A stretch of DNA of 64,000 bases from Rhizaria sp. SCN 62-66 (GCA_001724265.1 MEDY01000042.1:62001-126000); one strand, 5' to 3'. Positions 1 to 64,000 are shown, numbered from the stretch's first letter. Made by a program: numbers and translations. Notes: generated by a model not told the origin, from the sequence alone.

Positions 1-2579
1 GAGCGCGATCCTCAGTTACATGCACGCGCTGCTGCTGCCACCGCGCGCGCCACTGCCACCGCTGCCTCTCAGACCGAGTCGTCGTCTTTTAAGAGTAGCA
101 GCAGCCTAGCGAACGCTGCTGCGAGCAAGGACGGTGGTGTCGTCGGAGCGACTCTTGCGCGCGCTTTCACGCCCGGACAGCTGACTGCGCTGGAGCGCGC
201 GGACCCGCTGCTGCAGAGCCGCGTGGAAGAGCTGCTCTCGCTGCGGGCCGATGCGCTGACGAGCAAGGACATCCGCGAGAACCAGACTCTGCTCGACCAG
301 GTACTTTTCACTTCTCATTTGAAACGACTAGTACAATAAGTTACCCCTTGTTTAAAATTAATGTTGTGACATGAGCTACAAAATTACATACTCTAACTTT
401 GCTTATGTTGATTTTTCTTGAATGTTCATTTTTTGTTTTGCTAATATTTTAGCGTGCAGTTCTGCGCAGGCGGAAGCTCCTTGCGGTGGCCAAGCTCCGG
501 TCCCTTCGCGAGCGCCGCGCTGCCGAGGCCGTTCTTGCCCATGCCATCTCGCACCCTGTCTGCCACACGCGCCACGCAGTCCCTGGCGCCAGTGCCGACG
601 GCGATGCCGCTCTGGCGCTGTCCAACGGCGGCGGCGTCGTCTCAGCAGCGTCACACCGTCTTTTCGAGTCCACCCGCCTCCGCTCGGACACAACCGCGGC
701 GACTCTGTTCCAGAAGCCTCCGTTCCACAACTTTGGCGCCGGCAACATCTCGCAGCCTGCCGTACTGCCGCGCCCGCGCACTGCCGCCGCCGCGGGAGCC
801 TGCGCCGCCGCGTCCCGCTCCGTCTCCGGCGGCGTCTGCGCCTATGAGGGCGACTGCGGTCGGTCGAGCTGCGGCTTCCTGCGCGCTCCCACCGTGCCCG
901 GCCGCTCGCAGTCGGCGCGTGCGCTGCGGCAGGTGCAGGGCAGCGGCGACAACTATCTCGTCTCCCACAACGCTTACGCTGACGGCGCGTCTGCTGCCGC
1001 GATCGCGGCCGCAGCGTCCCAGGGCGGCAGCAGCGGCGGTGGCATCCACAGCAGCGTCACGGGCGCCGGCGCCGTCGTCACCGGCGGGCCCAAGAAGGCG
1101 ACGATGGCGGGCACGCGCCAAGTGTACCAGTCGGTGCGCCGCGCAGTGCGCAACCGCGTCGCCGCTGCTGCGAGTGATGAGCGGTACATCGCGCTCATGG
1201 TCGAGCCGCGGATGCGTCAGACGGTGGCTGCGGAGAAGCTGAGGCAGGGCGCTGAGCGGGCCAAGAAGGATGGGGAGATCGCGGGGTACGTGCCCGAGAG
1301 CTACTACATTGGCAGCAACTTTAGCCACGACAAGAATAACGATGGGAAGGCTGGGACGAGTGTGAGCGGGCTCACGGTCACTGATGGCTCCGGCAACACC
1401 TACAGCAGTCATTGCCTCGACGCAGGCACCGCGAATAGCGGCGCTAACTCCAGTGGCTTTGTCGGCGGCTCTAGCGGCAGCACTGCCGTGTTCGTCCCTT
1501 TATCGCCGTCGCACACTGTCGCCGCCGCGGGCAACCCTGCTGTGCGCAAGCCTCCGCGCGCGGCCAGGCCCGCCTCTGCACAGCCGCTGCGCGTGCCGCG
1601 CGGCGCCGGCGTGCTCAAAGTCAAGACGCAGGCGGACGAAGTTAAATCGCATGCGGGCGAAGTCAAGCCGCCCCGGTCCACGTCGCGCCCTAAGACGGGC
1701 CGCGGCGGCGGTGCTGCTGCTGTTCAGAAGACTGCGAACATCTGTCAGAAGAAGACAGTGCATTGGGACGACGAAAGCAACAGCAACAGGAACACGAACA
1801 CTGAGAGCAGTGCCACATGCGGTGGGGCGAGCACCGCGACTGAGCCTGCGCCTAGCCCCACAGCTTCTGCCGCAGCTCCCCAGTCACAGCTGCCGTCACG
1901 GTCGCAGACTCAGACGCTGGCACAGAGTCAGGACGCGACTTTGGCTGCGTTAATGGCTCTACTGCAGCAGCCGCAGCCTCCCGCGGTTGCCGCTGCTTTG
2001 CGCGCTACCGCCGCCGCCGCCGCCGCTGCTGCCAAGTCCACAGTTGCTCAGAACAATCCGAGCGCTGCTAGTGCGCCTCTACTACCGCTGTACACACACG
2101 TCGCGTCCACCGCGCCGAGTGAGATGGCGCTGAACTGCGCACAGTCGCCGCTGAACACGTGCTCAGAGTCTCCGTCGAGTGCGCAATACATGCAGTCACG
2201 GTCTCAAGTGAGCTCACAGTCGGTTCCCGCGGCGCGGCCCCGTGTCGCGCAGTGGCGTACGACATACGGCGACGACTTCACAGACAAACACCCCTCTGCT
2301 CACGGTCACTCCGCGGCGGCTCACGGCGCCTCCTCCGCCGCTGCCCACAGTCAGTTCGCGACGGCGCAGCTCGCGACAGCGCGCAGCCACGCGAGCCCGG
2401 TCTCGCTGCCGCTGCGGGCGCGCGCGGCGCCGGAGAGTCTGCCTGCGGCGGGCGTCGCGTCGCACGCGGTGACTGCGGAGAGGGCGCGGGAGGCGTGGCG
2501 CGCGGCTGACGCGAGCGATCCGTGTGCGATACACGCGGATGCGGCGGCCGCGGCGCTTTGCTCCGGCCCCATCTGGTGA
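1..2579 (+). CDS. Ala/Ser-rich hypothetical protein, 5'-truncated; exons <1-300, 453-2579
   Basis: Frame 1 is open from base 1 to CAG|gtactt at 300/301. AT-rich intron 301-452 ends ttttag. The phase-0 join gives ...NQTLLDQ|RAVLRRRKLLAVAKLRSL..., continuous with ORF 486-2579, ending TGA. No recognisable domain. Confidence 0.75.
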
Positions 2580-3004
2580 GAGAGAGAGATAAGAACGCAC
2601 TCGAGCGCCTATAACTGGTGGGGTACATGTAAGACTGTGATGCGGAAGCGAAGTCGAAGATAGAACCATCTTGTGATCGTGGCATTGTGGCGGACTGTTT
2701 AATGAAGATTACTTTCAATATTTTTACACTTTTAAAAATCACTATGAGAGATAAATCAGGCCAATTGGTCGGCTTAAGGTATTCCTTCAAATTTGAGAAA
2801 GAGAGGCAGTGGCATTTGATATAATAAATTGACTTAGTTTATTTCACTTGTTTTGAACTAACACATAGATTATATTAAACTATAAAGCCGCAGACAACCA
2901 CGTTGGCAGTCAAAATGAGCGAATGTCTTCATCAAGCGCAACACAGAGAGGGATACGTCTGTAGTTGAAGAACGGGTGCGAGCGAGTTTGAATCATTTAA
3001 CTGC

Positions 3005-3319
3005 TTACGCGACGACGACGTCAACGGCAGCCTTGCCCTTGGCAGAGGAGCCGACGGTGAACTCGACCTTCTGGCCCTCCTGGAGGGAGCGGTAGCCGGA
3101 GCCCTTAATGCCGGTGAAGTGGACGAAGACGTCAGTGCCATCGTCACCACCGATGAAGCCGAAGCCCTTGGTGGCATCGAACCACTTGACGGTGCCAGTA
3201 GCACGGGCGCCAGCAGAGGGAGCATCGGAGAAGAAGCGGGGGAGCGCGGTGGCAAGGGGAGCAACCGCGGCGGGCTTGGCGAGGAAGGCGATAGCGCGCT
3301 TGGAGAAGATGGACAGCAT
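3005..3319 (-). CDS. Cold-shock domain (CspA-like) protein with N-terminal mitochondrial-type presequence, 104 aa
   Basis: [16 protein letters not shown] (RNP1) ... DVFVHFTGI (RNP2) ... [13 protein letters not shown]. The first ~31 aa are basic/hydrophobic with no acidic residues and end ...LPRFFS-D. Stop TAA. Confidence 0.92.
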
Positions 3320-4181: not shown

Positions 4182-4636
4182 ATGTCCACACATGCTGCTG
4201 CTGCTGCTGATGGCAGCGGTGAGATTTACGTGCAGCGTATGATTGCCGGCATCATCGTTTCCGCCATCACCTCTGCCGCACCCTCTCATTGTAACAACAA
4301 AGACACTGTGACCGCCGCTGCGGAGGACACTGCAGCTGCTGTGTCCTAGTGCGGCACTGAGGACGACGACAGCTCTGTTAAGGTGTACATCCGCAGTCTT
4401 ATCGAGGAAATTATTACCAGCGCCATCGCCCAGGCCTCCGCTCCCACTGCTGCGGTCGCTGCAGTCGCTCACTCCGCAGACGCTGGGGCGACCGCGTCTA
4501 CTGCAGACGCCGCCTCCGCAGCGCACCCTGCTCTGCCCGCTGCACTCTGCGCCGACCTCGCATCCGCGGCCGCCCGGTTGGCGTCCGCCCGCGCCGCCGC
4601 GCGCGCCGAGCTCGACCGCGGCAGCGAACACACGCG

Positions 4637-4668
<32 letters not shown>

Positions 4669-7600
4669 CGACCGCGCTGGCGGCCAAGCGCGCCGCCGAC
4701 GCCGCGTGGCGCGATCACGCCAGCAAGACGAAGACCGTGGCCGAGGCGGCGGCGCACGCGGCGGTGATCGCGGCGCAGGCGGAACGGACTGCGCTTAAGG
4801 CGTTGATGGCCAAGGAGAGCTCCCCGCTCGCGATGCTGTCCTCCGACTACAGCAGCAAAGACAACAACGACGACGACGCTGAAAACATCACCACAAACGC
4901 GGACGATTTTGCCGCCGTTGCTGTTGCTTTGAGTGCTGATGCTGGCATCGCACACGCGAGCGACGACGAAGAGGAAGAAGAAGAGATTGCACTTGAGGAG
5001 GACTTCACTGCCGCTGCCGCCGCCGCAGCCGCAGGGGCTGCTGACGCCCGTGCCAGTGCGAGTGGTAGTGATGGCTTGCTGCGCGTCTCTGTGCCAGAAC
5101 ACGAGGCACACATGCAGGAACACATGCGTCAACTCGCGCTCTCACTGCCCGGCGCCGCCGACGCCGCCGCGCGCCGCCGCGCAACCACCGCCGCTCTACG
5201 CTCGCAGCTCAAGACCCTCTCGGCCGACGCGGCGGCCGCGGCCGAGGTCGCTGCTGCCGCGCGCGCGGAGGCGCTGGCAGCGACACAAGAGGCTATGCGT
5301 GCGGTCACCACGCCTGTTATGGGGCCGGCGACGCCGCGAGCCGGCGCGGGAAGTCTGGCCGCCGGGGAAAGTCAAGCCGCTGCTTCAGCGTCATCGTCTT
5401 CGGCGGTGCTGCTCGTGCCGGAGCTTGACATCCGCGGCGCTCTTGACTCTGACTTGAGCACTACCGACGGAGCACACAACATTCAGAGCACTGTTGTTGA
5501 GCACAAGAGCCATGATAAACCCAACGCCACGACTGTTGTCGTCGACGCTGCTGCGTTCGACGCGCACTGCAACTGCGGCGCTGACGCTATCGCTGCTTCT
5601 GCTGCTGCTGGTGGCGCTGCTGCTGTCTCTGCGTCGTCGTCGTCATCGCTCTCTGCGGCGCTCCACGGCCCCTCGTGCCCCGCACTGCTTTCCTCCCCCG
5701 CCGCCGTGGCCGACCACGACCTTCCACCATCGGTGTCCGCCGTCGCCGAAGCCGTCGCCCACGCGCACGACCTCGCTGCAGGTCCGCGTGCGCCGCTGCT
5801 GGCGCTCACCTCGCCACCCGGCGGCCCGCAGCCCGCTCTGCGCGCTCAGCTGTCGCTTGTCTCCGCCGCCGCCGCGTCCGCCGCGATGGCGCGCGCAGAG
5901 GCAGCGACCGCGGCGGAGGAGACCCGCGCGAAGACCAGGGCTGCGGGCAAGGCGGCGGCCACGACCGCGGCGGCGGCGGCTGCGGCACACGCTGCTCTTG
6001 CTCAGGTACGTAATATCTCAAACAAAGCGAAACCTTACTTAGCTATCAAAAGTTGTCCGATACCTTTACGATTGAACCTTACACACGATTATTTTCCTGT
6101 TTTCACCCTCTTTTGTTTTGATTTCATAATAGGCGCGTGCCGGCCACCGCGCCGCGATGGCGAACGTGCTGGCCGACGTTAAGGCCGCCGCTGTCGAGCT
6201 CCGCTCCATGGCAGTCAGCGCGAACACCGACGCCGCGCGCGCCGAGGCCGACGCTGCCGAGGCTGAAGTGGAGGCGTTGATGGCGACTACGCTGACGGCG
6301 ACGCTGTCCAACTCGTACAACTCGCGTGGCAATGCGGTGACGGGGAAACCGACACTGGCGAGAGTCGGTGAGACTGAAGCCGACGAAGAGAAGACTTCTC
6401 ACACTGTCGCGAAAACCGCTGACTCTACTGCTGGTGAGTCTGTTGTAGCTGCGAAGGTCGTGCTCACTGTGACAGACTGCGCTGAAAGTCTCGCTAAGAG
6501 CAACTCTCGTGCGGGCAAGCCTGAGTTTGTCCCTGTGCCGCTGCAGTCTGTCGTCGCCTCTGCTGCTGCTGCTGCTCCGGAGGTCGCTGTCGACTCTGTT
6601 GTCAATCTAGACTTCATCAACGAGCAGTTGCGCGATGCCCAGCTTAAGATTGCTGCCGCCGAAGCCATGGCGGCCGAGGCCGTGTCCCGCGCGTCAATCG
6701 CCGAAGGCATGGCTCTCGCGGCGGACGGCCGGTCCGCAGCGGCCGACGCCAAGGCTGCCGCCGCCGAGGCGAAGGCCGCTGCCGCCGGCGTGGGCACTGC
6801 GGAGGCTGAGAGCGCGTTGCTCGCCAAACTGCGCGCTGCTGAGCAAAGCGCAGCAGACGCGCGGGCGGATGCCGCGGCTGCGAAGGCTGCGATCGCTCAG
6901 CTTGAGGCCGCATCCTCCACGGCAGCTGCGCAAACCGAGTCAATGCTCGCGCAGTCACAGGCCGAGGTTCTGCGTCTGCAGTCTCTGCTCACAGCCTCTC
7001 AGAGCGTCAGTGCTGATTCTGCCGATGCGATTGCGCGCGCCGATGCCGCTGAGGCCGCTTGGGCCACTGCCCAGTCGCGCGCCGAGACCGCTGAGTGCCG
7101 CGCCGCCGCCGCCGAGGCCCGTATCGCTGCTGCCGAGGCCGCCGCTACCGAGGCCAAGGCCGCTGCCGCTGAGGCTGCTGCAGCCGCCGCGGACGCTGAG
7201 GAACGTGCCGCCGAGGCGGAGGCCGCGGCCGCGTTTGGCGCCGCCGCGGACTCGCTTTTTGGCTCCCCCGTCGCCCCCATCGCTCCTCATAGTATCAGCG
7301 AGCCCTCGGACTCGGTCCGCGACGCCTCGTCGCGCTCTGCAGCGCAGGCGGAGAAGGTCGCCGAGCTTGAGACTGCGTGCGCAGGGCTCGAAGCCACTGT
7401 CGCGCAGCAGAGCGCTGAGCTACACCGCGCTCAGTCCGACGCGGCGCGCACCGAGGCAGCGTTGCGGCGTGACGTTGCCGCCGCGCGCGCTGATGCTGAC
7501 GCCGCAAGGTCTGCGTACGCCGCACTTCAGTCTGACTTTAACGCCGCTGTCGCCAACGCAAGAACAGGCGTAAATACGAGTATGAGTGCGAGTAATGTGG

Positions 7601-9591
7601 CGATCACGCACTCGCCGTCCACCGAGGCTGCAGTGACCGCCGCCGTGGCCGCCGCGGTGCGCGACACCAGCGCTAAGTTCGCCGTCGCCCTCACCGCTCT
7701 GCGCGCGCACATGGCCGCGCAGCACCGCGACGCCGAGGCCGCGCTCGCGCATCTGCGCAGTCAGCACGCCGCCGCGTTTGCCGCCGCCGAAAGGGCCCAT
7801 GCCGCGGCGTTAGAGGAGGCGCAGGCCCGTGGAGCGCAGAACGCAACCGCGCTGGGCCGCGCGGGCGCCGAGACGCTCGCCGAGCGCGCGGCGGCGCACG
7901 AGGCGGCGCTGGCGCGGGCGCGAGCACAAGTCGACGCCGCGCGCGAGGACGCTGAGTTAGCCGCGGAAGACGCCGCCGCCGCGCGTGAGGAAGCGGCTAA
8001 AGCGGACGCCCGCGTCGCTGAAGTCCTCGCCGCTGAGGAAGAGCGCCGCGCTGATTTAGAGCAGGCGGTGCGTGAGGCTGAGGAGGAGGTCAACGCCGCG
8101 CGCGCCGCCGCCGCGATGCAGGCGAGCACAGTGTCTGCGCAGGCCGCGCAGCTGGTTGAGCTGCACTCGTACTGCGTCGAACTGGAGGATTTGGTCGAGC
8201 AAGGTGACGGCGAGGCCGCGTTCGAGGGCCGCCGCACGCGCCGCGCGCTCGTTGAGGAGGCCTCTGCGCTGTCGCAACGGCTGGCCACGGCGCGAGTCGC
8301 CGCGGACAAGGCCCGCGAGGAGCGCAATCGTGACCGCACGCAGTGCGAGGCCGCGGTCGCCGCGCTGCTGGCCGGCTGGGTGCTCGGTGACCGGCCGCCG
8401 TTGGAGGCGCATGCGATGGCGGCGCGGCAAACCACTGCGCTCGCCCCCAGCAAGAGCTCGGGCTCGGTGGTCGAGGCCGCTGCCGCTGCGCGTGCGCGTG
8501 CGCTGTTGTATCTCCAGTTCGTGCCGCAAGATGTGCTCGCTTCTCCTGTCGCGCCCTCTGCGATCTCCACTGCAATGGCCACCGCCGTGAACTCCAGCAG
8601 CAGTAGCGGTGCGGGGTCGCCAATGTCTGCGCGCATGCAGTCTCCGTCCCGCGGGCCGACCCCATTTGCGTACCAGTCGCAACAGCAGCAGCCGCGGCGC
8701 GAGAGAGGCGTCGTGCTGCATTTACCGCCCGTCGCACTGCCCGTGACCGCACCCGCCACCGTCGCTGACGCTTCCGCGACCGCGCGCGCGCTGTCGGCGC
8801 AGATGGGCATCGACGCGGGGACCAAGAACGCGCACAAGAGGGCGGTTGACGCCATTGCTGGTGCGGCGGCTAGTGTGGAGGCCCGGGCGTACCGTGGCCG
8901 CGCGCGTAGCAGCCGTCGCGTCAGTGAGGAGGAGGAGGACGAACGTAAGGTGAACAGTGAGGATAACGACTACGACGTTGCCAATGAGGATTATGGTGCT
9001 TGTGGCGCTTACAGTGATAGCGATGAAGAAGGCGCACACGTGCGTTACGGCGGCGCTGCGAGCGGTCACACTAACAGCGAGTACAGTAACGGTCAACACA
9101 GCGACGAGGATGAAGATGACTATTACTACGAGCGCAGCAAGAGCAATATGACCGCCGCCCACTCGCACGCACGCCACGGTAGCCGCCGCGGGGATGATCT
9201 CGACGTCACTGTGGCGACATGCGCGACCCCCCGCAATCGCGTGTTGGCTGAGACTCAGTGTCAGGCTCAGACTGCGCCCAAGACGGTTCCGCTGTCGCTC
9301 GCAGTGCCGTACCCGTCCAACACGCAGTCACAATGCCAGAGGCCGCGGTCCCGCTCGCAGTCGCCCGCGCCCATGCGCCAGCAGCAGCAACAGCACGCGG
9401 CGCGCACAAGTGTCGCGATCGTGGCCGCATCGGGCAGCGCGCCGCCCCCTGCGCTGGTAAATCCGCCCAAGTCGCAGTGGAACGCGTGGCGCGTACAACC
9501 GAGCGCGCCCGCAGCGACAACAACAGCTGATCCTAGCCACGTGTACACGGTTGAGGACCAGCTTGATGATCTGTTTGCCGAGTTTCTGTGA
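4182..9591 (+). CDS. Large Ala-rich coiled-coil protein (~1760 aa if the in-frame TAG at 4347-4349 is read through); exons 4182-6005, 6133-9591
   Basis: ATG 4182, ORF 4167-4349 and ORF 4383-6182 share one frame, separated only by the TAG. Intron 6006-6132 (CAG|gtacgt...aatag|GCG) joins in phase 0 to ORF 6157-9591. Long A/E/R helical stretches. Stop TGA. Confidence 0.7.
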
Positions 9592-9957: not shown

Positions 9958-11565
9958 ATGTCTGTGGGGCGCATCACCCCCGTGAAGAAGCGCGCCGTGC
10001 GCGAGGCTGACGGGACAATCCGTATTCTCGAAGACGGCGAGCAGCCAGGTGACTTTAAGGGCTCCTTCCGCGAGCCTCCGCGGCGCGCGCACAACGCGTT
10101 CAAAAACCCAGGCCACCACTTAGAGGACCGCGTGCAGAAGATTCTCACATGGGAAGGTTTTTCGCGCGTCGAGATCAACCGCCTTGTGCGCGACGGCGAC
10201 GGTAATTTATCGGAACTGGACGTCGTAGGCTGGGGCGGCCGTTACTTTTCGCGCTGGCTCCCGCGCTCCTGGTCTCCGCTCAAGTTTGGGCAAGGCTCTG
10301 TGTTTGTTGAGTGCAAGCGCTATAGCCAGGGCAACCCCGTGTCTCTGGCCGACGCCGCGAAGTTTAAGGAAGTCGGTGTTTTAAACAACCTCCCACGCCG
10401 CAACATGCTCATGGTAACGACATCGTCCTACGTGCCGCGCGCGCGCAAGATCGGCATCTCTACGGTCGACGGCGCCGCGCTGGCCAAGTGGGAGCGCGCG
10501 GCGTGGCGCCGGTTTCGCCAGCGCCGCGTGCGCCGCGCGGTGATCGGCGCTGTCGTCGGCGCCGCGGCGCTCACGGTCACCTGGGGCGCGTCAAAGGCAC
10601 GCGAGCTGCGCACAAAGCGGTGTGACTCGGCTCCGTCGCGCGACGCGTCGCTGTTTTCGCGCAAAGTGTGGGAGATGACTGGGACGAGTGCGCCAGCACA
10701 GAGGCGCGCGTTTCTGATGTCGTCGTCAAACACCAACGCTTCTGCCGTCACAAGTACCAGCGGCTCCTCACAGTCTTCGTCGTCGTCGTCTCGTTCAACG
10801 TCGACGTGGCCTGGACTGGGCGTTGTTGTGACGCTGCACTCAGCCACCGCGGCTGCGCGCGCCGCCGCAGACGCCGCGTCTGCTTCGGCCACCGCTCTCG
10901 AGACCGCCGCCGCCGCCGCCGGTGCCGCTGCCGCTACGAACAGCAAGGCACTCGCAAACAACAACAGTTCCGGTGCCTCGAAGACGGCGAGTGGGGCGAG
11001 CGCTGACTCTGTTGCTGCTGTGAACACGTCGTTTTCGGACACGATGTTGACGAACCCTTTCGAGTCGCTGTGGTCTGTTCCCGTCCGCGCCCTCAAGCAA
11101 ACCGAACTGGGCAAGTCCATCTCGAGTGTGCTAGAGCCATCTCTGGCGGACGAGGAGCAGCGCCGCCGCCGCAAGACCACCGGCGAGCTCTCCTTCGCTG
11201 ACCGCGCCGGTGACGTTGCCAGAGTCGGTTGGAGCGGGGCTAAGCGCGCCGCGTCGTGGCTGCGGCGGCCTGCGGGCGGGTTCCGGACCTGGTTTTGGGC
11301 CAGGAACGACGCTGTTGAGATCGTGTGGATGCCCGCTGGCTGCGCGCTGAGCCACCCACATGCGACCGTGGGGCCCGCATGCGCGTCGTGGTTCCCCGAG
11401 CAGGGCGAGACGCCGACACACACCGCGGCCGGGCGCAACCAGAGCGGGGGGGCCGCGCAGCATGAGAGTGAGGTGGTGCGGCCTGTAAGGCTCTTCAGGA
11501 TCCCGGTTCCACACTTTTTGTCCGTGCCAAAGGTTGGGGCTTTTGTGCCGCAGTCCTCCCGTTGA
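9958..11565 (+). CDS. Mrr-like (type IV restriction endonuclease fold, PD-(D/E)XK) domain protein with a TM segment and low-complexity tail, 535 aa
   Basis: GHHLEDRVQKIL..EGF..VE...ELDVVG...VFVECKRY...PVSLADAAKF...MLMVTTSSYVPRA...GISTVDGAALAKW follows the Mrr_cat pattern. Hydrophobic AVIGAVVGAAALTVTWGA follows a basic stretch. No intron. Stop TGA. Confidence 0.8.
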   Translation: MSVGRITPVKKRAVREADGTIRILEDGEQPGDFKGSFREPPRRAHNAFKNPGHHLEDRVQKILTWEGFSRVEINRLVRDGDGNLSELDVVGWGGRYFSRWLPRSWSPLKFGQGSVFVECKRYSQGNPVSLADAAKFKEVGVLNNLPRRNMLMVTTSSYVPRARKIGISTVDGAALAKWERAAWRRFRQRRVRRAVIGAVVGAAALTVTWGASKARELRTKRCDSAPSRDASLFSRKVWEMTGTSAPAQRRAFLMSSSNTNASAVTSTSGSSQSSSSSSRSTSTWPGLGVVVTLHSATAAARAAADAASASATALETAAAAAGAAAATNSKALANNNSSGASKTASGASADSVAAVNTSFSDTMLTNPFESLWSVPVRALKQTELGKSISSVLEPSLADEEQRRRRKTTGELSFADRAGDVARVGWSGAKRAASWLRRPAGGFRTWFWARNDAVEIVWMPAGCALSHPHATVGPACASWFPEQGETPTHTAAGRNQSGGAAQHESEVVRPVRLFRIPVPHFLSVPKVGAFVPQSSR

Positions 11566-11893: not shown

Positions 11894-14800
11894 ATGGGGT
11901 GCATTGCCTCCTCAATGGAGGAGCCAGTGCAAAGCTCTTTGCCGCAACAAGTTCCGAGCCCTGCAAGTGCTGCAAGTCCAGTGTCACCCCTCGTCGTATC
12001 CCTGTCTCATCGTGATCCCACGTCTGTGATGACACACAGCGACGAGATTGCAGAGGCGGCCACAACTGGCAGCTTAAAGCCAAAGCCATCTCAAAGCAAC
12101 GCAAAGTGCGCTACTTCAGGACCTATCGCACCGGTTGTGCGAGTGCGTAGCCGCTCAGATCTCACTGGCACATTCGGCACCTCGGACAGCGAAGGTGACA
12201 ACGTAAACGGGACTGCGTCTTCAAGTTGTCGCACCAGCGACACCAACGGCAACTTCTTTGAGATCGACACTGACGAGGAATTCTATCCAGACGCCGACGC
12301 CGTGCTGCGCGGACTTGCCATCGGCGCATTATCCCCGTGTCATCGGTCTGCGGCTAGGACAGAATCTTTCGCCCACAGCGGCACAGCGCCTGGCGCTACT
12401 GCGCAGCGGCTGGGTCTCGCTCTCACGCGGCCTGCTCCGGGGCGACACGCCACCTCACTCACTGCAACTGCAAGCAGCATGGAGCGCGTGCGCGCGAGTG
12501 TGCTGACGCAGCCACAGTGCTGTGTTGTGCGGCCGGCTGCGAGTGCGCGACTGTGGCTCGGTCCGTTTTTGTTGCGTGACTCAGTTGTTGCGCACAGCGG
12601 CCGCATCTGCACACTTGCATCAGCAGCTGTGAACTCGGTGAACGCGAGCAGCGGTGCAACAGAGAAGCGGTGCTATGCAGTGACTGTGGATGGCAAACAT
12701 GGTCTGCCGAAGCTGTGGGCAACGCAGCTGAAGCAAACACAAGCTCCGACTAAAGCAACTGAGGCTATGAAAGCTGTTGCGCTAAACAAACCCCAGCGCC
12801 CGCGAAGTGGTTTTGTAGCATTCTATGCCCCTGACACGGCTGATAGGGAGAATGCCAATCTGTGGGGCGAAGATGAAAATGACGCAAACGCTGGTAACGT
12901 CAAGGCTAGCAAAGGTCTTGCGAGCAAGCGCAATGGCGGAGATCAACGCACTCGTATCACCTTGGCGCACCCGCTGCTCGGTCACCACGCAAATGCACCG
13001 ATTCACGCTGTTGCATTAATGCCGTTTAAGCACCATACCGAAGAGAACGAGACGCTTGTGGTTGTCACAGGAAGCGAAGACTGCACGCTTAAGGTCGTAC
13101 GTTCAAAAAACGAGTGTGTTTGACTACTCTAACTTTCATATCGTAAAATTGAACCGACCCACTTAAGCTAACCTATGACTAAATCACATGTGTTTCATTT
13201 TATTAAGCGTAGTGGTGCCCTGAGACAGGCATGTGCGTCCGCACTTTTCTGCGTCACTCAGCAATTCTGCACGCCACTCTCATTACTGCACCGTTACCCA
13301 CAGCTTCTACAGACGGCAAACACGTGCAACACAGGGTTGAATGCCCGTGGGTGCTGTGGAGCGAGGCCGGCAGCAGCACTGTACGCGCGCTTGCGATTCC
13401 ACAAGAGAGGAATGTTGCGGCGCCAAGTTTTGATCGGACACATGGTCTTCCGTTGCACAGTGCATCATTGGCCACTGTACCGCCATCACCAAAGCGCAGC
13501 GCCACAGTTGGCACTCTTTCGTCTTCGATAGTGCTTGGGACTGATGAGAAGCATGACGAAGAAAGCACACACAACATGGCAAACGCCGCCAGTGGGACGC
13601 TGAGGAATGTTACTGGTGACACACAGGGTAAGCCAACGCCAACAGTTGATCGCAAGAGTGGGGGGGCCAGCTCAACTCATTGTGCTGCCGGCTTACAGTC
13701 GCATTTACAGCCAGTCAATAACGGCGTTCAAAATGTACCCACAAACTGTGCGCCTGCGGGGGTTATTGCCACTGCTGACAGGATACCTATTACTGGAGCT
13801 CGTGGTCTACCAAGGAGCCGCAGTGCCAGTACAGTAACTTTGTCTCCATCAAGTCGCACCTTGTCAACTTTCGAAGAAGATTTTTCATTTGCACATTTAT
13901 CTCGTAGCAACTTAGAGCACCGCGGAGTCAAAACTCAAAGTCAAGCACATGAAACAGTTGATCGCGATTTACTCGAGAGCAGCCACGGGCAGCGGTTCAG
14001 CGCACTGCACACGAATCCTCTTGGTGCTTACAGTCATCTGTCGCCTCGTGGCCGCATCAATGCAAATAACAGTGTTCATACTGTGCACGGATCCGTACAG
14101 CGTCGCGGTGACGCCTGTGTAAGCTCGGATGCGCGAAGCCACCTGCCTGCGCCCATCATTGCGGTCACTGACAAAACAGCATCTCACGGGCACAGTTCTG
14201 TTTTACATTGCAACACTGAGAGTCGTGCTATTTCGCCGTCACCTGCAACAAGTGCTGCATCTCGCGCTTTCATCTTTCCGACTTTGCCAGCTGTACCACC
14301 ACAGGTCGCACTCGTTGCATCTCCGACAATGGCGCGCGCATTCGCCGCCAGCAAACACACTGTGGATACGACACGCGCTGATGCACACACTGCCGTTGTC
14401 AACGGGCTGGATGAGCCGTTACGTCTACGCTCACACAGTCACCAGCCATGGGCACTGATACCAGTCAAGGCCGCGTTCTTTTTAAGTCCTCATAACGCAA
14501 CGCGTGGCGATGCTGATGCAGCTCAGCGCAACTGCTAGCACGACAGCGGTTACGGTGGGTGTTTGAGTATTGCGCGAGATGGGGTCCGTCTGTGGCGGCC
14601 ACCTGCGATGTTGCCAGTCGCATTGTGGCCACTGCCTGATGTCCCTGCGCACAAGGATCATCCGTCGACCGCATTGCGTCCGCTGCTCACAGTCACTGCG
14701 GCTTGTATCGGACCGCCTGGAGTTCTACTCCTTGCCGGTACTGTTGCAATCGACGCGAAGATCGCGATCACACAGCACTTGCCAGCAACGCAAGGGATTG

Positions 14801-15747
14801 TACTTGCTATCTGCGCATTTACTGGCACAGTAATCTCGTCAACAGTTCTCTCGCATCCCGTTGACGGTAAGGCTAAACCGGTGATTGCAAGCAGTGATAA
14901 GCGAGGATGGTTCACACGACTGATCAGTGCAAGTCCTACAGTGGACGCGGGGGTCAAGGAGCTTGTCACTGCGGCAACAGGAGACAATGCGATTTCCCGC
15001 AATTACGTAAATGCTGCCGGCACTAGGATTAAGAGCTCTAGTCACGCTAGTTTTGCCCACAATGCGCACGTTGGTTCTTCTGGCAGCAGTGCCTGTGTTC
15101 CTCATAAGATCGTCTCAATGGCGTTGCTTGGCCTCAGCGAATGCGCTGGCTGCGAAGTGACCGTGGCCGTTGCCCTCAATTGTGGTGCTGTCGGCACGCT
15201 GCACTGGAAGCTGTACAGCGAACACACTCCGATGTGGGCACCGGCGCATAGTCACCTTGAGGGTGATGTTCATGAACATTACACGAAAGAGAACTTGACA
15301 AGCAGTGCGAACAGCATGGTGGTCACAGATGCTGCACAGACTGCATTAACTACTTGCGTAAGCAGTGCGGTTGCAACCAAAGATACGTTACTTGATCACT
15401 CTAAGAACGTCTTGTCCAAAATAAGCGCTGACCAATCGCCAGTTAAAAACAACAACGAAGAAGTGACTGTTGGGCCGTGGGTTCGCGTAGTTAAGGGACT
15501 GGATGCTTGCTCTTGCAGCGCACAACAGCAACAGCAACGGACTGCAACTGCAGCTACTCATGGTTACCTGGGCGCAAAGAGCCACACCGTTGATAGCGTT
15601 CGGAGTGGACCTCATATGATTTTAGCAGCGGCAACAATGCCCACAGTAGCAGTAGCGGGTGCAAAGAGGCTAGAAGGGTCAGGGTTGTTGCTTGTGGCAC
15701 GCGAGGACACTCTTCAAATTGTGCAAACAAACCCAGATAAACAATAA
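11894..15747 (+). CDS. Degenerate WD40-repeat protein with long insertions (~1245 aa if the in-frame TAG at 14536-14538 is read through); exons 11894-13096, 13213-15747
   Basis: Splicing 13097-13212 (GTC|gtacgt...cgtag|TGG) reconstitutes a WD40 repeat GHHANAPIHAVAL...VVTGSEDCTLKV|WCPETGMCVRTF. ORFs 13231-14538 and 14563-15747 are in the same frame across a single TAG. Stop TAA. Confidence 0.7.
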
Positions 15748-38362: not shown

Positions 38363-38396
<34 letters not shown>

Positions 38397-53300: not shown

Positions 53301-53719
53301 ACACGCACTACGCCGAGGGCATCTCCCCGCGCTCGCAGCACGTGGCGTGGATGTGGGAAGTGTTGACCGAGATGGACCAGTCGGCGCGCCAGCAGTTCAT
53401 TCGCTTCGCGTGGGCGCAGGACTCGATCCCAGCCACGGACGCCGAGTGGACGCAGCTCGGTGCGCGCATGCTGCTCAAGCCCTCGCTCAAGGCCGTCGAG
53501 GCCCCGCCCGCGCGCGAGAGTGACGCCGACCTAGCGCCGCTGCCGCGCGCCGACACTTGCTTCTTCAACGTCGAACTGCCGAGCTACCACACCAAGGCGC
53601 AGCTCAAGCGCAAGCTTCTGTATGCCATCGCGTCGGGCTCATCGATGAACGCCGATGAGGTGCATCAGGAGGATGACGATGGTGGGTTCTTCCGCGCACT
53701 CTTCCGTCGCAGGCGTTAA
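24959..53719 (+). CDS. Giant intronless HECT E3 ubiquitin ligase, 9586 aa
   Basis: Single 28.8-kb open frame from ATG 24959. C-terminal HECT (AFHVRFERELVLGVAGPYRQF...FIRFAWAQDSIP...LPRADTCFFNVELPSYHTKAQLKRKLLYAI; catalytic Cys codon 53558-53560). Also SPRY, RanBP2-type Zn finger, ZZ-like finger and HECTD1-like beta-sandwich motifs. Stop TAA. Confidence 0.93.
38351..38392 (+). repeat. (GAC)n trinucleotide run encoding poly-Asp inside the HECT ORF
   Basis: GAC x3, GAA, GAC x10, within a longer acidic block. Confidence 0.85.
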
Positions 53720-54358: not shown

Positions 54359-55129
54359 TCACTTGCTCACACTCGCAGCTGGGACTGTTGCTGCTGTGGC
54401 AGCTGTGGAGGCGGCTTGCTTTGCCGCGGCGACCTCCCGCGGGTCCACATAAGCCACCTCGCCTTCCGCCTCAGCCTCCGCGCGCGCCGCCGCAGCGTCC
54501 GCAAGCGAGCCGGGCGTGCCTGCGGCCGCGGCGGCGGCAGCGGCGTCGACAATCGTCCCCTTGCGCGGGACTGTGAGCGAGAGCCCGGTACTCTCGGGCC
54601 ACAGGTACCCGACAACGGGGTACTTGCTGATGAACTTGGACGTCCACTGCAGCAGCGTCTTGTGCTCCTTCGCGGTGATGGCAGAGATATCAGTTGTGGT
54701 GTCGGTCAGGGACATGGTGGCGAGAGCGCGGGAGGAATCGCGGCCCGCGAAGTCCTTGTACCCGCCGCGGCGGCCTGCGATGTAGCAACACAAAATAGAC
54801 GCACGCGGAAGTGAGCGCGCAATAGATACATACAAGTAAAAATAGACGGTATGCGCATAAAGGGAATTTTGTTGGAACGTACCGTAGAACTCAGGAGCGG
54901 ACGAGACGTCAAAGACGAGAACGGCGCGGTGGACTGAGGAGTAGGAGGCTAGCCAGAGGACGCTGGTGGCGCGGCGCTTAGCGAGCTCTTGTGGGGAGAT
55001 TGCGCGCTCGGAGAGGTCAATAACGGGCGGTAATGTTTTCGTGCTCGAGGCGTAAAGAGCCAAGATAAAGCCACCAATAAGGGTCATTGCGCCGACGAGG
55101 GCGGTCACAACCTGAGCGACGTCCGGCAT
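54359..55129 (-). CDS. MAPR-family (PGRMC/Dap1-like) cytochrome b5-like heme/steroid-binding protein; exons 55129-54883, 54774-54359 (220 aa)
   Basis: N-terminal TM anchor. After removing the 108-nt phase-1 intron (G|gtacgt...cgcag|GC): VFDVSSAPEFYG|RRGGYKDFAGRDSSRALATM...QWTSKFISKYPVVGYL, the MAPR signature. Stop TGA. Confidence 0.9.
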   Translation of the reverse strand: MPDVAQVVTALVGAMTLIGGFILALYASSTKTLPPVIDLSERAISPQELAKRRATSVLWLASYSSVHRAVLVFDVSSAPEFYGTFQQNSLYAHTVYFYLYVSIARSLPRASILCCYIAGRRGGYKDFAGRDSSRALATMSLTDTTTDISAITAKEHKTLLQWTSKFISKYPVVGYLWPESTGLSLTVPRKGTIVDAAAAAAAAGTPGSLADAAAARAEAEAEGEVAYVDPREVAAAKQAASTAATAATVPAASVSK

Positions 55130-56338: not shown

Positions 56339-59300
56339 TCACATGATGTCGAGCTTGAGGCGGGGCATGACGTTCATCGCCTGCAGCTCCTGGAACAGCA
56401 GCTTGCACGCGTACGGCAAGCGGATCGACACGAGCTGGCCACCGGCCTGGCAGTAATGGCACCAGTTATCGTAACCCAACAGACCGCAGTCCTTGCAGAC
56501 GTGCACGGGGAACGCGTCGGAAGACATGAGCAGACGCTCTTGCAGCATCGCCGATGCACCGTAGCCGATTAAGCAATCGCGCTCCATTTCACCGAGACGC
56601 AGACCACCGTCGCGCGAGCGGCCTTCCGTGGGCTGGCGCGTCAGCACGGCGCGAGGACCGCGGGAGCGGGCGTGCATCTTGTCCATGACCATGTGCTTGA
56701 GCTTCTGGTAGTAGATGGGGCCCGCGAAGACGAACGCAGACAGGGGCTCGCCAGTGATACCGCAGGTGAGGATGTCCTTGCCAGAGTAGGTGTAGCCCTT
56801 GTCGACGAGGATCTGGCTCACTGCCGTCACCTTGTCGCCGCCGAACGCCGTGCCGTACTTGAACGAACCCTGTTGGTGCGTAAAAAAATTATCAAAAAGA
56901 AAAAAGCCAGTGAGATACATATTGATATGTTATAATTGTGAATTTACGTATTATATCCCGAATTAAACAATTATTGCTAAATTACACGATATTATATATT
57001 ATATTTCATCAAAACAAGAGTTATTTGCACATATATGGCGTAATTTACGTACCTGAAGGACACCAGCCTTGCCGGCAAGGAGCTCAATCATCTTACCGAC
57101 AGTCATACGAGAGGGGAAACCGTGGGGGTTCATGACGAGGTCGGGATACAACCCGCGGTCCGAGAACGGCAGGTCCTCCTGCTCGACGATGATACCGCAC
57201 ACGCCCTTCTGACCGTGACGCGAGGAGAACTTGTCACCGAGCTCGGGGCGACGCGTGGACCGCATGAGGACCTTAACTAGCAGTGTATCGTTCTCGTTCG
57301 ACGAGAGGAGCACCTTGTCGACGTACGCGTACTGCGGGCCCTTGTACGACAGCGCGGCGGGGCGGTACTCCGAATCAGGCAGCGCATTGACGTTGGACAA
57401 CGTATCAGACGTGTTCTTGGGCATCTGCTTGTTGACCAGGATGTCTCCGGGCTCGATCTTGGCGCTGACGTGCGCGATGCCGTCGCGGTCGAGTCCGTTG
57501 TATTTGCGGTAATGAGCCGATGCGCGCATCGTAGCATCCATCTCGGGCGGGCACACGACGCGGTCGAGCGTCTGATTCGCATAGTGCTTCATCGACACGA
57601 CGTTCTTGCGCAGAACCTGGCACATGCCGAAGCCGCGGTCGAGCGAGGCCTTGTTGAGCACGATGGCGTCTTCGATATCATACCCAGAGTAGGACATGAC
57701 GAAGACGGACGCGTTTTGACCGGCGGGGAGCTTGTCAAACCCGACCATTTCGATCGTGTGGGACTGCACCATGGGCCGCTGCGGGTAGCAGAGCAGGTAC
57801 AGCAGCGTGTCGATGCGGTTGAGCTGGTTGTGTGCGATAGAACCGATGGCCTGCTTACCCATGGCACACTGGTAAGTGTTGCGGGGCGACTGGTTGTGGT
57901 GTGGGTAGGGAATCAGACCGGCGACGACGCCGAGGATGGTCATGGGGTCGACTTCGAGGTGCGTGGTCGCGGGCTGGATGTCCTTCTCACGGAGCGCGAT
58001 GAGCGTGTTGTTCTCTTCGTTCACGTCGATGTACTCGACGAGGCCGTCCGCGAGAAACGAGTCGAAGTTGCGGAGCCCCTGGTTGAGCTCACTGAGGTGC
58101 TTCGTCGTAATGCGCGGCACGCCGTTCTCGACGATGATGAGCGGGCGCGTCACACGGCCGCCGTCAGTCGCGATGTAGATCACGCGCTGCTCTTCGTTGA
58201 CGTAGATGGACACGAACACGGGCAGCATGCCCGCGCGGCGGAGAGTGCGGAAGTCGCGCGCGAACTGTGTCGGGTTCTGGTGCACGCCGTAGACCGTACC
58301 GTTGATGACAACGAGAAAAACGGACTTGTGCGCGAGCTCTTCACCGGTCATGAGCTCAGAGTCCTCGACGCCGAGGTTGAAGGCCAGGCGAGCCACGGGC
58401 AGCTCACGGTCGTCGGTGGTGACGTGGGTCAACAGCGCGAGGTTCTTGACGAGACCGCATGACTCGCCTTCGGGAGTGTCGGACGGACACAGCATGCCCC
58501 ACTGCGACGCCTGTAGTGAACGCGGACCGGAGACCTTGCGCGTCTTCTCGAACTGGGAGGTGATGCGCGTCACCATGCCGAGTGCGGCGATGAAAGAGAG
58601 ACGGGAGAGGACTTGGGTAACGCCGGCACGCTCCATGTGGAAACGCTTGACGTTCCAGTTGCCTGTCGCGATCGAGTTTACCAGGCCGTTCGTGATCGTG
58701 TCCTTTAAGAGAGCAAAACAAAGGACGGCGAAAAAAGACAAAAGTGAGGATATAGAGCGTACATAAACAATTTTCAGCGTTGATTTCGCGACAACGAGTG
58801 GATATTGCAGAGTAATGTCGATAGAGCAAACTTGAGCTTGAGAAAATTGAATATACGAGCGCAATGTTGCGATGAAAGAGAGAGTAGTGAAGCGTGATAA
58901 AGCGTACCTGGCGGATGGCCTTGAGGACATCGAACTGCTCCGCCCTGTTTTGCTTCTCCAGCACACTGTCCGCGTACTTACGGAGCTCGGTGTTGAAACG
59001 CTTGAACAGGTCTTCGAAGAGAAGCGAGAGCAGCTGACCAGCCAGCTCGAGACGCTTGTTACCGTAGTAATCCTTATCGTCGACGAGCTTGGGGTCACGC
59101 ACGGCCATGAGTACGCGGCGCACCATGAGCGCGAGGTACACGGTCTTGGCGTGGAAGTTGTAGTTGAGCACGGGGATGTGGGAGCACACAAGGGACGCGA
59201 GAGTGTCGCGGGCTTGGTCGGAGCGAGACTTGGTGGGCTTGCGCATGGGGCCGCTGCCGCTGAACTGAGTGCGGTTGCGGGAGATGCGGATCTTGCTGCC

Positions 59301-60988: not shown

Positions 60989-62080
60989 TCAGTCCTCTTT
61001 GGCAGAAGCCTCGGCAGGCAAGTCAAAGTAGTCCCGCGTGGCCGGCACAATGGCCGCGCCATCCCACGGCGGCAGCGGGGCCGGCGCCGCGGCCACGGGG
61101 GCCGGCGCGGAGACAATTGAGGAGAAGAATGAACCGAGCTTGCCCGCGATTGTGGTCGGGGGAGCCATCTCCTCAAGCTAAAACAGTGCACAAAAACAAA
61201 ACAGAACAATACAAAAGTACAGAAGACGTAAGAGAGTGTTAAAATAGCCATTCATATAACAGATCGCCGTGATTAGTAGACATATATCATACATACCTGA
61301 GTAGCACGGTTGTCGGCGAGCTTGAGAGCGAGCTCGTAGTTAGTGAGAAGGGACTGAATACGGTCGAGTTTAGCGAAAACAACCTCCATATCAGCCGCAG
61401 TGGCGCGCTAGAAAAAGCACATATCGAAGGAAAACAAACGTAGTCGTGTTAGGCAACCAATACGACACAGTTATTTAGAAATAATTTAGTTTGAAGCTGT
61501 TATTTTGTGGAGATATAATCGATTTCGTAGACGAACGTACGAGATCAGGAACAGTCGTGGTAGCCGCGTCTTTGCGCGCAGTGCCAACCTAGACAAACAC
61601 AAAACAAACAAAGAAGACAATATAAGTCACCTTCACTAGCAGTAAACAATATAGCAGAAGTGAAATAGACGTAAAGATTGAGGCATATATGGAATATGCG
61701 TGTTGAACGTACTGCGTGAATCATCGCATTGAGCTCGTCAACCTTGATGTTGTGCGCCTTGATGACAGCATTAAGTTTCAAAACCTACAAAAACAAAAAG
61801 ATTTGTTCAGAAACAGAAGTAAGCCCATTGGCATTCTATGGTGATGTTACGAGGAGCAATCTTGACGCAAAGACGCGTTGCTGGAGACGTGGGTTGAGAT
61901 GAGGAGAGGGAGACGTACGTGCGCCTCAGCGTCGGGGCCAGTCTTAATCTCCTGTGCAAGCTCAACAAGCTGGCTGACGGTCTTGGCGGACGCGTCGATA
62001 ATCGGGACGTGCTGGTTCAGACGCGACTCGGTGGCAGTGGGAGCCTGCTCAGCGGTCGCAGCGAGGGTGGGGGAGCTCAT
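60989..62080 (-). CDS. BLOC-1 subunit 4 (cappuccino/BLOS4)-like coiled-coil protein; exons 62080-61919, 61784-61713, 61588-61541, 61407-61297, 61177-60989 (193 aa)
   Basis: Four GT(AC/AT)GT...TAG phase-0 introns give a clean ORF: ...KVDELNAMIHAV...DMEVVFAKLDRIQSLLTNYELALKLADNRATQLEE...KLGSFFSSI...PWDGAAIVPATRDYF. The F.KLDR helix and C-terminal T.DYF recall the cappuccino family (from memory). Gene structure is more certain than the family call. Stop TGA. Confidence 0.65.
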
Positions 62081-62725
62081 TTCTCACCAGCACGAGTCAG
62101 TGGGTACAGAGTGGCGGCTCGGGAGGAGTGACGAAGGTTTCTAGAGCTATAAAAAAAAAGAAATAGCAGAAACTATTACGAAAAATCAGAAAGTTGTGTT
62201 GCACTGCCACTGACGGCTTGTTTGTCGAGATCCGCAATGGCTTCAGTCGCGGTCACTCATGAGGCGACGCTGCTCACAGTCTTCCGAAAGCGCTTCACTT
62301 CACTAGTAGATTCTCGCTCTGCTGAAACGTCAGGTGCTTATTTTATGCGCCCATGCCAACAAAGACACCGCTTTGTATAATGTGTTTTGATTATATTATC
62401 TGGAATGCAATCTGCCTTTCTCTGTAGTCGACCGAGCTAGTGCCAAGCTGCAGAGCACGTCTCTTGCCGAGATCCTCTACTCCAATTGCACATCCACGCA
62501 CATCTTTTGCATGTTATCAAATGATGCTGCCACTTCCTTGCTATAACTGCAATTTTACGCTCGGATCCCATGCTTATATTTCTCGACCTTGCGCGTACAC
62601 CGCTCTGTTTCTATCCCGGCCTTGCTCCGATTGCCTCCAGCTTCGTACACAAACCAGCTTCATTCAAGACATCCGCTGCGACCAGGCCCATCTTCCCTCA
62701 ACCACACGACCTGCGCGCCGGTGTT

Positions 62726-64000
62726 ATGTACTCCGCCTACGGCGCCCCGGCGCTGACCCCGTCCGCTGCGCCGCTGTTCACTCCCCACAGCGGCAGTTTA
62801 CTCTCGCCATTCTTTATTGCTGCAGCTCCTGTGCCCGCCACGCCCGCCGCCGCTGCTGCGCCTATGGCGTCCGCCGCGAGTGCGCCCGCGTTCCCTGCGC
62901 CCTGGCACGCGTCCGCGCATGTTCCACTTCCCGCGTTGAGCACGCTTGCCGCGGCTGGGGTTGTGTCGAGCGCGGGCAACAACGCTGCCACGCACTACAA
63001 CTCTCACGCCCACACAAGCGCTGGTGGTGTTAATAACGTGAGTACAGTCGCGAGTGCTGCTGCCAGCGACGTTGCTGGGCTCAACTGGGCTCCGATCCCG
63101 CACCCTGATGCCCCCGTTGTTGCTATCGTGCCACAGTTCGCCGTTATGCGCGACACTACTGCCCGCGTCAATGCTGCCGCGAGCAGCGCAAACGATATTA
63201 CGACTGCCTCGACTGCTGTGGCTGACTCTGCGCTGCTGCCCGCTGCTGACTTTGCGTCGACGGGCGAGCGCGGCTACGGAGTGTTTGGCGGCGTGTCCGC
63301 TGTTAATCCGGTCGAAAACGCGCTTAAATCGCTCACGAAAGCGGTGTTCATCACAACTGCAGTGCTGCCGAGCACTCCTTTCGCCGCCACTTCTTCGACT
63401 GACGGGAACTCGAACAGCACGGCGACAGCAAGCGCAGTGAGCGCAACGCTGCCCATTCTGGCTGAGGCGCGGGTGTCTCACACACTGATACACACGACGG
63501 ACCCTTATAATGCAGCTTCTGAGCAAGGTTCTTACGCGACTGCTAATGGAGCGATTCGTACGACGACGACGGTGTTGCCGTTGGCGGGCGCATGCTCATT
63601 GCTCGCGTTCAAACCCACAGCGCCGGTTCCTACGTCGAACGCGCTCTCGGGAGCCACCACAAACGCTTCTAGCAGCAGCAGTAACAACAACAGCTCTATC
63701 GGCGGTAATCACTGCAGTCGTCCTGAGGGCTCTGCTGCTGCGTCCCCGTCTCTCGCCACACTGACCTCACCGTCGCCGGCGCTGTCACTCGCGCCCGCGG
63801 TGCCAACCGAGAGCGTTTTTGCGCTCGCTGCTGGCGCTGCCGTGTCACTGTGGCAGGCAACCGGCCTTCCGACCACCGCCTCCGCCGCCGCCTCCGCCGC
63901 CGCCGCCGCAGCAGCAGCAGCATCAGCTGCGAGCGCGAGCGCGAGCGCTGTGGCTGTGAAGGACGCATGCGCTGCGACGTGCAGTGTGGAGTGTTTCTCC
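62726..64000 (+). CDS. Ala/Ser/Thr-rich protein, 3'-truncated by the window end
   Basis: The frame from ATG 62726 (MYSAYGAPALTPSAAPLF...) stays open to base 64000, which is why it is missing from the ORF track. An in-frame upstream ATG exists at 62570. Confidence 0.7.
   Translation, partial: MYSAYGAPALTPSAAPLFTPHSGSLLSPFFIAAAPVPATPAAAAAPMASAASAPAFPAPWHASAHVPLPALSTLAAAGVVSSAGNNAATHYNSHAHTSAGGVNNVSTVASAAASDVAGLNWAPIPHPDAPVVAIVPQFAVMRDTTARVNAAASSANDITTASTAVADSALLPAADFASTGERGYGVFGGVSAVNPVENALKSLTKAVFITTAVLPSTPFAATSSTDGNSNSTATASAVSATLPILAEARVSHTLIHTTDPYNAASEQGSYATANGAIRTTTTVLPLAGACSLLAFKPTAPVPTSNALSGATTNASSSSSNNNSSIGGNHCSRPEGSAAASPSLATLTSPSPALSLAPAVPTESVFALAAGAAVSLWQATGLPTTASAAASAAAAAAAAASAASASASAVAVKDACAATCSVECFS

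Follow-up and report, generated by a model that had tools for sequence, protein, structure and literature searches.

Two fixed in-frame TAG codons in a 64-kb window of an uncultured rhizarian: premature stops or decoding of UAG?

Gene models and gene ends

The 64-kb window (i.e. the whole stretch of DNA analysed) contains 12 gene ends and two in-frame TAG codons, the latter located in genes CD and E2F (1,761 and 1,246 codons in total, respectively; Table 1). The original prediction had placed seven TGA, five TAA and no TAG terminators in this region, and each was confirmed at its predicted position. A TAG at 18829-18831 had been rightly omitted from this count, as this triplet closes an ORF but falls within an intron of the Mic60 gene. 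Internal stops had been claimed only at 4347 and 14536. Exon models of CD and E2F agreed with this claim, and the models of seven further genes, complete or partial, had no internal stops. None of the four genes recognisable by their domains (i.e. RPC2, Mic60, Methyltransf_16 and the 9,586-codon HECT gene) contained an in-frame TAG.

Table 1. Coordinates of the in-frame TAGs, flanking motifs, exon models and terminators
Feature	Position	Strand	Remarks
In-frame TAG, codon 56 of gene CD	4347..4349	+	context TCC TAG TGC; +4 = T
In-frame TAG, codon 843 of gene E2F	14536..14538	+	context TGC TAG CAC; +4 = C
Amphipathic motif (19-20 residues), first copy	4218..4277	+	upstream of TAG 4347
Amphipathic motif (19-20 residues), second copy	4377..4436	+	downstream of TAG 4347
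Gene CD exon 1, 608 codons	4182..6005	+	Ala-rich; donor CAG/GTACGT at 6005/6006
Gene CD intron, phase 0	6006..6132	+	predicted; AT-rich; ends TAG; join leaves open frame
Gene CD exon 2, 1,153 codons	6133..9591	+	ends TGA
Gene E2F exon 1, 401 codons	11894..13096	+	joint 13096/13213 seen in cDNA contig
Gene E2F intron, 116 nt, phase 0	13097..13212	+	GT..AG; ends TAG; skipped exactly by X5 record 11
Gene E2F exon 2, 845 codons including TAG	13213..15747	+	ends TAA; GC3 only 0.46-0.49
Terminator TGA, gene A	2577..2579	+	
Terminator TAA, gene B (105 codons)	3005..3007	-	
Terminator TGA, gene CD	9589..9591	+	
Terminator TGA, gene E	11563..11565	+	Mrr_cat-like domain
Terminator TAA, gene E2F	15745..15747	+	
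Terminator TGA, gene G	17280..17282	+	
Terminator TAA, Mic60 gene	20376..20378	+	4 exons, 17593-20378; last intron joint seen in cDNA
Terminator TAA, Methyltransf_16 gene	24281..24283	+	2 exons, 20945-24283
Terminator TAA, HECT/SPRY gene	53717..53719	+	9,586 residues, 24959-53719
Terminator TGA, gene L	54359..54361	-	
Terminator TGA, RPC2	56339..56341	-	4 exons, 56339-60374; relative's protein aligns to last residue
Terminator TGA, small multi-exon gene	60989..60991	-	60989-62080

Reading frames around the two TAGs

Both TAGs are flanked on each side by coding sequence in the same frame. In gene CD, the coding score in frame 0 was positive from the ATG at 4182 onwards, including across 4347, and the 1,705 codons after this TAG contained no further stops. 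The first in-frame ATG past 4347 was located at 4806 (i.e. 152 codons away), yet the coding score of the ATG-free segment 4350-4805 was as high as that of sequence farther on. The copies of an amphipathic motif on either side of this TAG have residues in common that are partly encoded by different codons, indicating that both copies were long maintained as protein. In gene E2F, no in-frame stops were observed in the 402 codons after 14536, whereas the five remaining frames contained 8-23 apiece. The +4 base was G or A at 10 of the 12 real terminators as compared to T (4347) and C (14536) at the internal TAGs.

Homologues of the interrupted genes were sought in several searches. No Pfam family matched CD or E2F, and no orthologues were found for F (838 aa, TAG as X). 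A search with F2 returned its own 379-aa ORF alone, and the N-terminus of CD (95 aa), when compared to 1.84 billion representatives, matched only its own 39-aa fragment. By these searches both TAG-bearing genes are orphans, so that the amino acid is unassignable, as the original prediction had also stated on the ground that neither site lies at a conserved column.

Presence of the TAGs in strains, assemblies and cDNA

Base errors, heterozygous nonsense alleles and splicing had been named as potential sources of the TAGs. In run X4, which derives from a different study, a 572-base piece over 4347 (record 1, 3900-4471) exhibited one difference, at 4224, and a 3,359-base piece over 14536 (record 6) exhibited nine. 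The TAG was kept in both of these SNP-differing pieces, and no indels were observed between strains. Amongst the public assemblies on record, the ORFs were interrupted in all seven contigs for E2F (i.e. both ORF pieces flanking 14536) and in all six for CD (i.e. the short ORF ending at 4347). No intact allele was found amongst these 7 and 6 contigs, with runs spanning 2015-2025 and 11 studies, and no uninterrupted F protein was detected amongst proteins of 460-1,467 aa using the 838-aa query. Base error is excluded at 4347 and 14536; the TAGs are real and are fixed in all assemblies.

A cDNA contig of 3,100 nt (X5 record 11) had the 116-base intron of E2F spliced out, ended no more than 5 bases short of the TAA and contained an unchanged TAG at 14536, although such contigs lose minority variants and a contig spanning two genes does not prove a single transcript. 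At 14536, this contig excludes splicing as well as dominant RNA editing, and the TAG is present in spliced mRNA. For 4347, the sole donor-like site (4219) would produce a 131-base intron that breaks the frame, in a segment that is not AT-rich unlike real introns, and splicing-out of this TAG was rejected. A loose end at exactly 4349 in one contig of run X7 was taken as noise; 97% of X7 sequence diverges from the window.

Strain SNPs in E2F comprised four synonymous and four non-synonymous changes before the TAG and zero and three, respectively, after it (hypergeometric P = 0.21 by hand calculation, not significant). The direction of this contrast is as expected for a tail that is no longer translated.

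An error in the gene models would also produce apparent internal TAGs. TAG 14536 would then be a true gene end with 14608-15747 as a separate gene, whilst 4182-4349 would be an upstream ORF of a CD gene starting later. An ATG does occur 23 codons past 14536, gene callers call the 379-aa ORF there and the cDNA contig has the limit on single transcripts given above. Against these points, the resulting gap would comprise 69 GC-rich bases as compared to 309-676 AT-rich bases for six same-strand spacers, the reading frame is maintained across the TAG and F2 has no free-standing homologue. In CD, segment 4350-4805 would have a high coding score without an ATG and the motif copy at 4377-4436 would go untranslated. 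We consider erroneous models to be very improbable.

Recoding might alternatively be specific to these sites in an organism with the standard code, in that both UAGs undergo programmed read-through or are converted to UGG by A-to-I editing at particular stages. Such editing occurs stage-specifically in filamentous fungi, and UAG, found at both sites, is the sole stop that A-to-I editing converts to sense. In eukaryotes, C is the leakiest +4 base and CARYYA is a read-through context. Site 14536 resembles programmed read-through in having a UAG followed by an open frame and a +4 C, the subsequent CAC GAC being loosely like CARYYA, and the frame is likewise open past 4347. However, the full context is unmatched, the +4 base at 4347 is T and sequences downstream of either TAG folded no better than shuffles (z = +0.81 and -0.33), indicating an absence of stimulating structure. 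The UAG at 14536 was unedited in the cDNA contig, subject to the loss of minority variants, and no orthologues were found against which conservation could be judged. To our knowledge, neither programmed read-through nor A-to-I stop editing is known in Rhizaria. Site-specific recoding is, in our assessment, improbable.

Codon usage and chance

The extent to which this pattern could arise by chance was examined from codon usage. TAG accounted for 2 of 16,877 modelled codons, which is below the rarest sense codon, AGA, with seven. As the codons of the window are GC3-rich, with many CAG, GAG, AAG and TCG, TAG is the commonest product of nonsense mutation, constituting 64% of the predicted spectrum overall (CD, 68%; E2F, 39%). 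Random nonsense mutation would generate TAG at both internal sites with P = 0.26. Of the stop triplets found in non-coding DNA, 16-22% are TAG, and at this share the absence of TAG from 12 terminators has P = 0.05-0.12, in line with the original view that this absence is modest evidence by itself. The signal extends weakly beyond chance, and choice of the 64-kb window for its TAG oddity favours a chance origin.

Host organism and known variant codes

The RPC2 protein groups the organism with cercozoan-like Rhizaria. The organism is uncultured and recurs in wastewater and bioreactor runs from 11 studies. In a relative with a 77% identical RPC2, the LeuRS ORF is closed by a TAG at the homologous C-terminus. 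Further DNA of the organism or its kin was sought in three scans: P0002, compared to genome contigs, matched a single archaeal rpoB (41%), gene E had no match in metagenomes, and a scan with P0004 produced 80 loci, of which L002 alone was close and the other 79 (55-65% identical) were left out. Scans of the 64-kb window for tRNA genes and Rfam families detected zero of each, and eRF1 is not encoded there.

As described by Panek et al. 2017 (PMC5304391), Rhizaria sp. exLh (Sainouroidea) decodes UAG as Leu, with 384 in-frame UAGs in 71 mostly conserved genes, at conserved Leu columns. The two cases are alike in having a rhizarian host, UAG alone in frame and terminators that are solely UAA or UGA (56 and 15 in exLh; 5 and 7 here). 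In contrast to exLh, the two TAGs of the window, amongst ~17,000 codons, are confined to orphan genes and have an unassignable amino acid. UAG-only reassignment is also described for Iotanema spirale (Gln) and phyllopharyngean ciliates (Leu and Gln), where UAG has become independent of UAA and the latter still acts as a stop, as would be the case here if UAG is decoded (PMC5304391, PMC11687900). In these lineages, which are unrelated to the host organism, UAG is a widely used sense codon and suppressor tRNA genes are present in two genomes, unlike the findings for the window.

A lineage-wide loss of UAG as an efficient stop, through decoding by a tRNA-CUA (suppressor or reassigned) or general read-through with UAA and UGA kept, would account for several of these observations. 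TAG was found at 0 of 12 terminators and at both internal stops, is fixed across assemblies and SNP-differing strains, and is retained at 14536 in spliced mRNA. Coding-like open frames occur on both sides of each TAG with the motif kept on both sides of 4347, the +4 contexts differ from those of terminators, and the host belongs among cercozoan Rhizaria, which are home to the sole known UAG=Leu nuclear code (PMC5304391). Conversely, the codon is rarer than any sense codon and absent in frame from the conserved genes of the window, each statistic is weak singly, the window has no tRNA genes and was chosen for its oddity, and a relative employs TAG as a terminator. Furthermore, the UAG-only codes described in PMC5304391 and PMC11687900 all use UAG widely. 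On balance, the findings from the window tend to speak against UAG being an already established sense codon. The loss of UAG as an efficient stop would instead represent an early, leaky or ambiguous stage of a UAG-only change, with UAG gone from terminators and starting to enter genes, which we regard as unlikely though worth considering.

Fixed premature stops as the favoured reading

Fixed premature termination codons occur in fast-evolving, dispensable genes. Our favoured reading, with a probability of roughly 0.55, is a standard code combined with two fixed premature stops in fast-evolving lineage-specific genes. Two nonsense mutations to TAG would have become fixed in CD and E2F, and we infer that translation halts at both. 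E2F would have lost its final 402 codons, whilst CD would either be dead or begin at a start codon farther on. Frames past the TAGs would still be open because the mutations are young in comparison to the decay rate of an untranslated frame, and the lack of TAG amongst the 12 terminators would be a small-sample effect.

Several findings were counted for premature stops: the orphan status of the genes, with one stop per otherwise open frame in lineage-specific genes; a TAG-rich nonsense spectrum, such that the type of stop is predicted by codon usage; the P value of 0.05-0.12 for terminators; TAG-free domain genes; an absence of stimulating RNA structure; the SNP direction; and the TAG-ended LeuRS of the relative. 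The exLh usage of 384 UAGs in 71 genes versus two here was likewise counted in favour (PMC5304391). Other findings were counted against: fixed stops in 2 of ~13 genes are many for a free-living protist, and the stop in CD is at codon 56 of 1,761, between motif copies. In addition, no decay is apparent past either TAG, no intact allele exists in the assemblies, E2F continues to yield a spliced mRNA and the TAGs are followed by T and C at +4. The window alone cannot tell UAG decoding from simple truncation of two fast-evolving genes.

Implications

If UAG is not decoded, the locus demonstrates that nonsense mutations in GC3-rich genomes are mostly to TAG (64% here), so that a variant code is only weakly supported when TAG is the sole stop seen in frame, and that a dozen terminators are too few to show that one of the stop codons is missing. 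If UAG is decoded, this organism would represent the second UAG-only change in Rhizaria and the first to be caught with the codon almost unused. Such a case would provide a rare look at an intermediate stage of codon reassignment and at how UAG leaves UAA before the sense codon spreads. Recurrence of the organism in runs of 11 studies makes follow-up possible.

Genomic context and host

The window had a GC content of 0.54–0.71 per 4 kb and a eukaryotic gene content, with AT-rich introns of 116–203 bases lying between coding exons and carrying GT(A/T)CG-type donors, CTCAC-like branch sites and YAG acceptors. This sequence, in whole or in part, was present in 18 of the 20 listed wastewater/bioreactor metagenome runs (11 studies), three of them being possible sources of it. 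A single-gene tree of the Pol III subunit RPC2 was constructed from 38 rows, using homologues from a quick search. The window RPC2 fell within a fully supported five-row clade of metagenome proteins that nested with the chlorarachniophyte Amorphochlora (SH-aLRT 95), and the Amorphochlora-containing clade was sister (94) to Spongospora and Nonionella. This placement points to a cercozoan-like rhizarian host.

The HECT domain of the giant ligase lies at the extreme C-terminus with the SPRY domain ~5,450 residues in, and residues 1–5,000 matched no Pfam family. No relative of the Mrr_cat-like protein was found in JGI metagenome contigs. The product of the small minus-strand gene may be of the cold-shock-domain type, with a presequence at its N-terminus.

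Features of the window and of the two TAG-bearing genes (CD and E2F)
Feature	Position	Strand	Description
Small gene	3005-3319	minus	105 codons; gene model
Gene CD	4182-6005 + 6133-9591	+	1,761 codons; TAG (4347-4349) is codon 56
CD motif copies	4218-4277, 4377-4436	+	CD N-terminus; 19–20 residues, amphipathic
Mrr_cat-like domain protein	9958-11565	+	535 residues; weak Pfam match (E 1e-4, 22.8 bits vs cut-off of 21)
Gene E2F	11894-13096 + 13213-15747	+	1,246 codons; TAG (14536-14538) is codon 843
HECT ligase with SPRY domain	24959-53719	+	single-exon ORF, 9,586 codons
Pol III second-largest subunit (RPC2)	56339-60374	minus	four exons; Pfam
Mic60 C-terminal domain gene			Pfam
Methyltransf_16 gene			two exons; Pfam
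GTGAG words at TGA terminators	2575-2581, 9587-9593, 56337-56343		splice-donor-like

Gene ends and internal stops

The original prediction held that none of 12 gene ends uses TAG and that two in-frame TAGs are the sole internal stops of two genes. Rebuilt models agreed with the coordinates of all 12 ends (i.e. seven TGA and five TAA) and with both internal TAGs, one in each gene; the remaining modelled genes or gene parts of the window, seven in number, contain no internal stop. A TAG at 18831 is not a terminator, as its ORF ends within the first Mic60 intron. The base at +4 was T or C at the two internal TAGs, unlike the G or A found at 10 of the 12 real terminators, a difference favouring translation through UAG. 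Three of the seven TGA terminators lie within a GTGAG word, probably by coincidence, since at the RPC2 end the protein of a relative stops at exactly this point.

Both TAGs are genuine

Base error and splicing had been named as ways in which the TAGs could prove spurious. A sequencing run from another study (X4) retained both: one letter differed over 3900-4471 (at 4224) and nine over 13348-16706, none of them at either TAG. In contigs of a cDNA library (X5), two introns were spliced out: the final one of Mic60 and that of E2F (116 bases, GT..AG). The 3,100-nt E2F contig extended from 12527 to 15742 through the TAG with one differing letter, at 13444, indicating that the spliced sequence retains the TAG at 14536 with no visible editing. 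In a collection of 15 billion proteins, the ORFs on the two sides of the TAG at 14536 each occurred on seven contigs and short ORFs closing at 4347 on six, and contigs bearing these ORFs measured 121–397 kb; the protein search did not find an uninterrupted form. Both TAGs are therefore genuine in the DNA, and their observation is confirmed more firmly than a reading of the sequence alone could achieve. That they are fixed in different strains, in separate studies and over several years, and that no intact allele was found, favours decoding of UAG. Editing or read-through confined to these sites is improbable, and no RNA structure was found downstream of either TAG, which also counts against UAG decoding.

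The introns of CD and E2F (acceptors 6130-6132 and 13210-13212) both fall in phase 0 and close with TAG. An in-frame TAG followed at once by an open frame can therefore equally mark an acceptor here. As a candidate acceptor, the TAG at 4347 lacked an in-frame donor, and that at 14536 lies in a region shown by the cDNA to be unspliced. One contig of a further run (X7) matched the window only from 4350 onwards, directly after the TAG, and differed upstream. This contig probably represents GC-rich sequence with no relation to the window, given that 97% of X7 matches run on unlike it.

Reading frames across the TAGs

In gene CD, a codon-usage score derived from confidently modelled genes was positive from the ATG at 4182, across 4347 and past 4800, and no in-frame ATG followed the TAG until 4806. 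One copy of an amphipathic motif lies on each side of this TAG. Several shared residues of the two copies are coded differently (e.g. Ser as TCC or AGC), indicating that both have long been kept as protein; the motif, a putative amphipathic helix, may resemble helices of the RII/DPY-30-docking type in A-kinase anchoring proteins. The E2F frame contained no stops in the 441 codons upstream or the 402 downstream of its TAG, as compared to 7–23 in the other five frames. The lack of decay downstream of both TAGs argues for decoding of UAG, as does the loss that CD would otherwise suffer (1,705 of 1,761 codons).

The E2F island has a GC content of 0.535 and E2F a GC3 of 0.46–0.56, or 0.46–0.49 in its second exon, as compared to 0.70–0.87 in its neighbours. 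This atypically low value weighs against UAG decoding, and E2F may be of recent or foreign origin. The E2F protein begins with MGC, a putative acylation signal. Strain SNPs in E2F comprised four synonymous and four non-synonymous changes before the TAG but none and three, respectively, after it. This pattern leans towards an untranslated tail, again contrary to decoding, although the difference was not significant.

Strength of the case for a code change

In favour of decoding, two of ~13 genes with a fixed stop is a high number, and the host falls within the broad grouping that gave rise once to UAG=Leu, in Rhizaria sp. exLh (Sainouroidea); a search of the accessible literature found no further rhizarian code variants. 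Nevertheless, TAG is the likeliest nonsense product. Codon counts in the window were CAG 376, GAG 603, AAG 340, TCG 355, CAA 85, GAA 155 and CGA 28, and TAG would arise from 64% of single-base nonsense changes in window codons, 68% in CD and 39% in E2F, giving a P of 0.26 that both internal stops are TAG. Non-coding DNA and 3' flanks have TAG at 16–22% of their stop triplets, so that its absence from 12 terminators has a P of 0.05–0.12. Both TAG-bearing genes are orphans, with no Pfam family and no relatives found in protein searches, whereas the recognisable genes of the window contain no in-frame TAG. By comparison, PMC5304391 reports 384 in-frame UAG across 71 genes for exLh.

Further evidence against decoding came from a relative's locus (L002), detected in a metagenome scan, whose RPC2 is 77% identical to that of the window. 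The relative's gene is intron-free (10001-13294) in a genome of ~50% GC, whereas the window gene has three AT-rich introns. Long ORFs of this locus end in TAA, TAG, TAA, TAA and TGA, with the TAG terminating a LeuRS of bacterial type where solved LeuRS chains would place its end. A more similar RPC2, at 82% identity, lies on a 70-kb contig.

Evidence from this window for a UAG code change is thus weak. Genome-wide decoding or leakiness of UAG is unlikely, and mis-modelling of the genes very unlikely. The favoured reading of this one window, with a probability of roughly 0.55, is that the organism uses the standard code and that premature stops have become fixed in two of its orphan genes, both dispensable.
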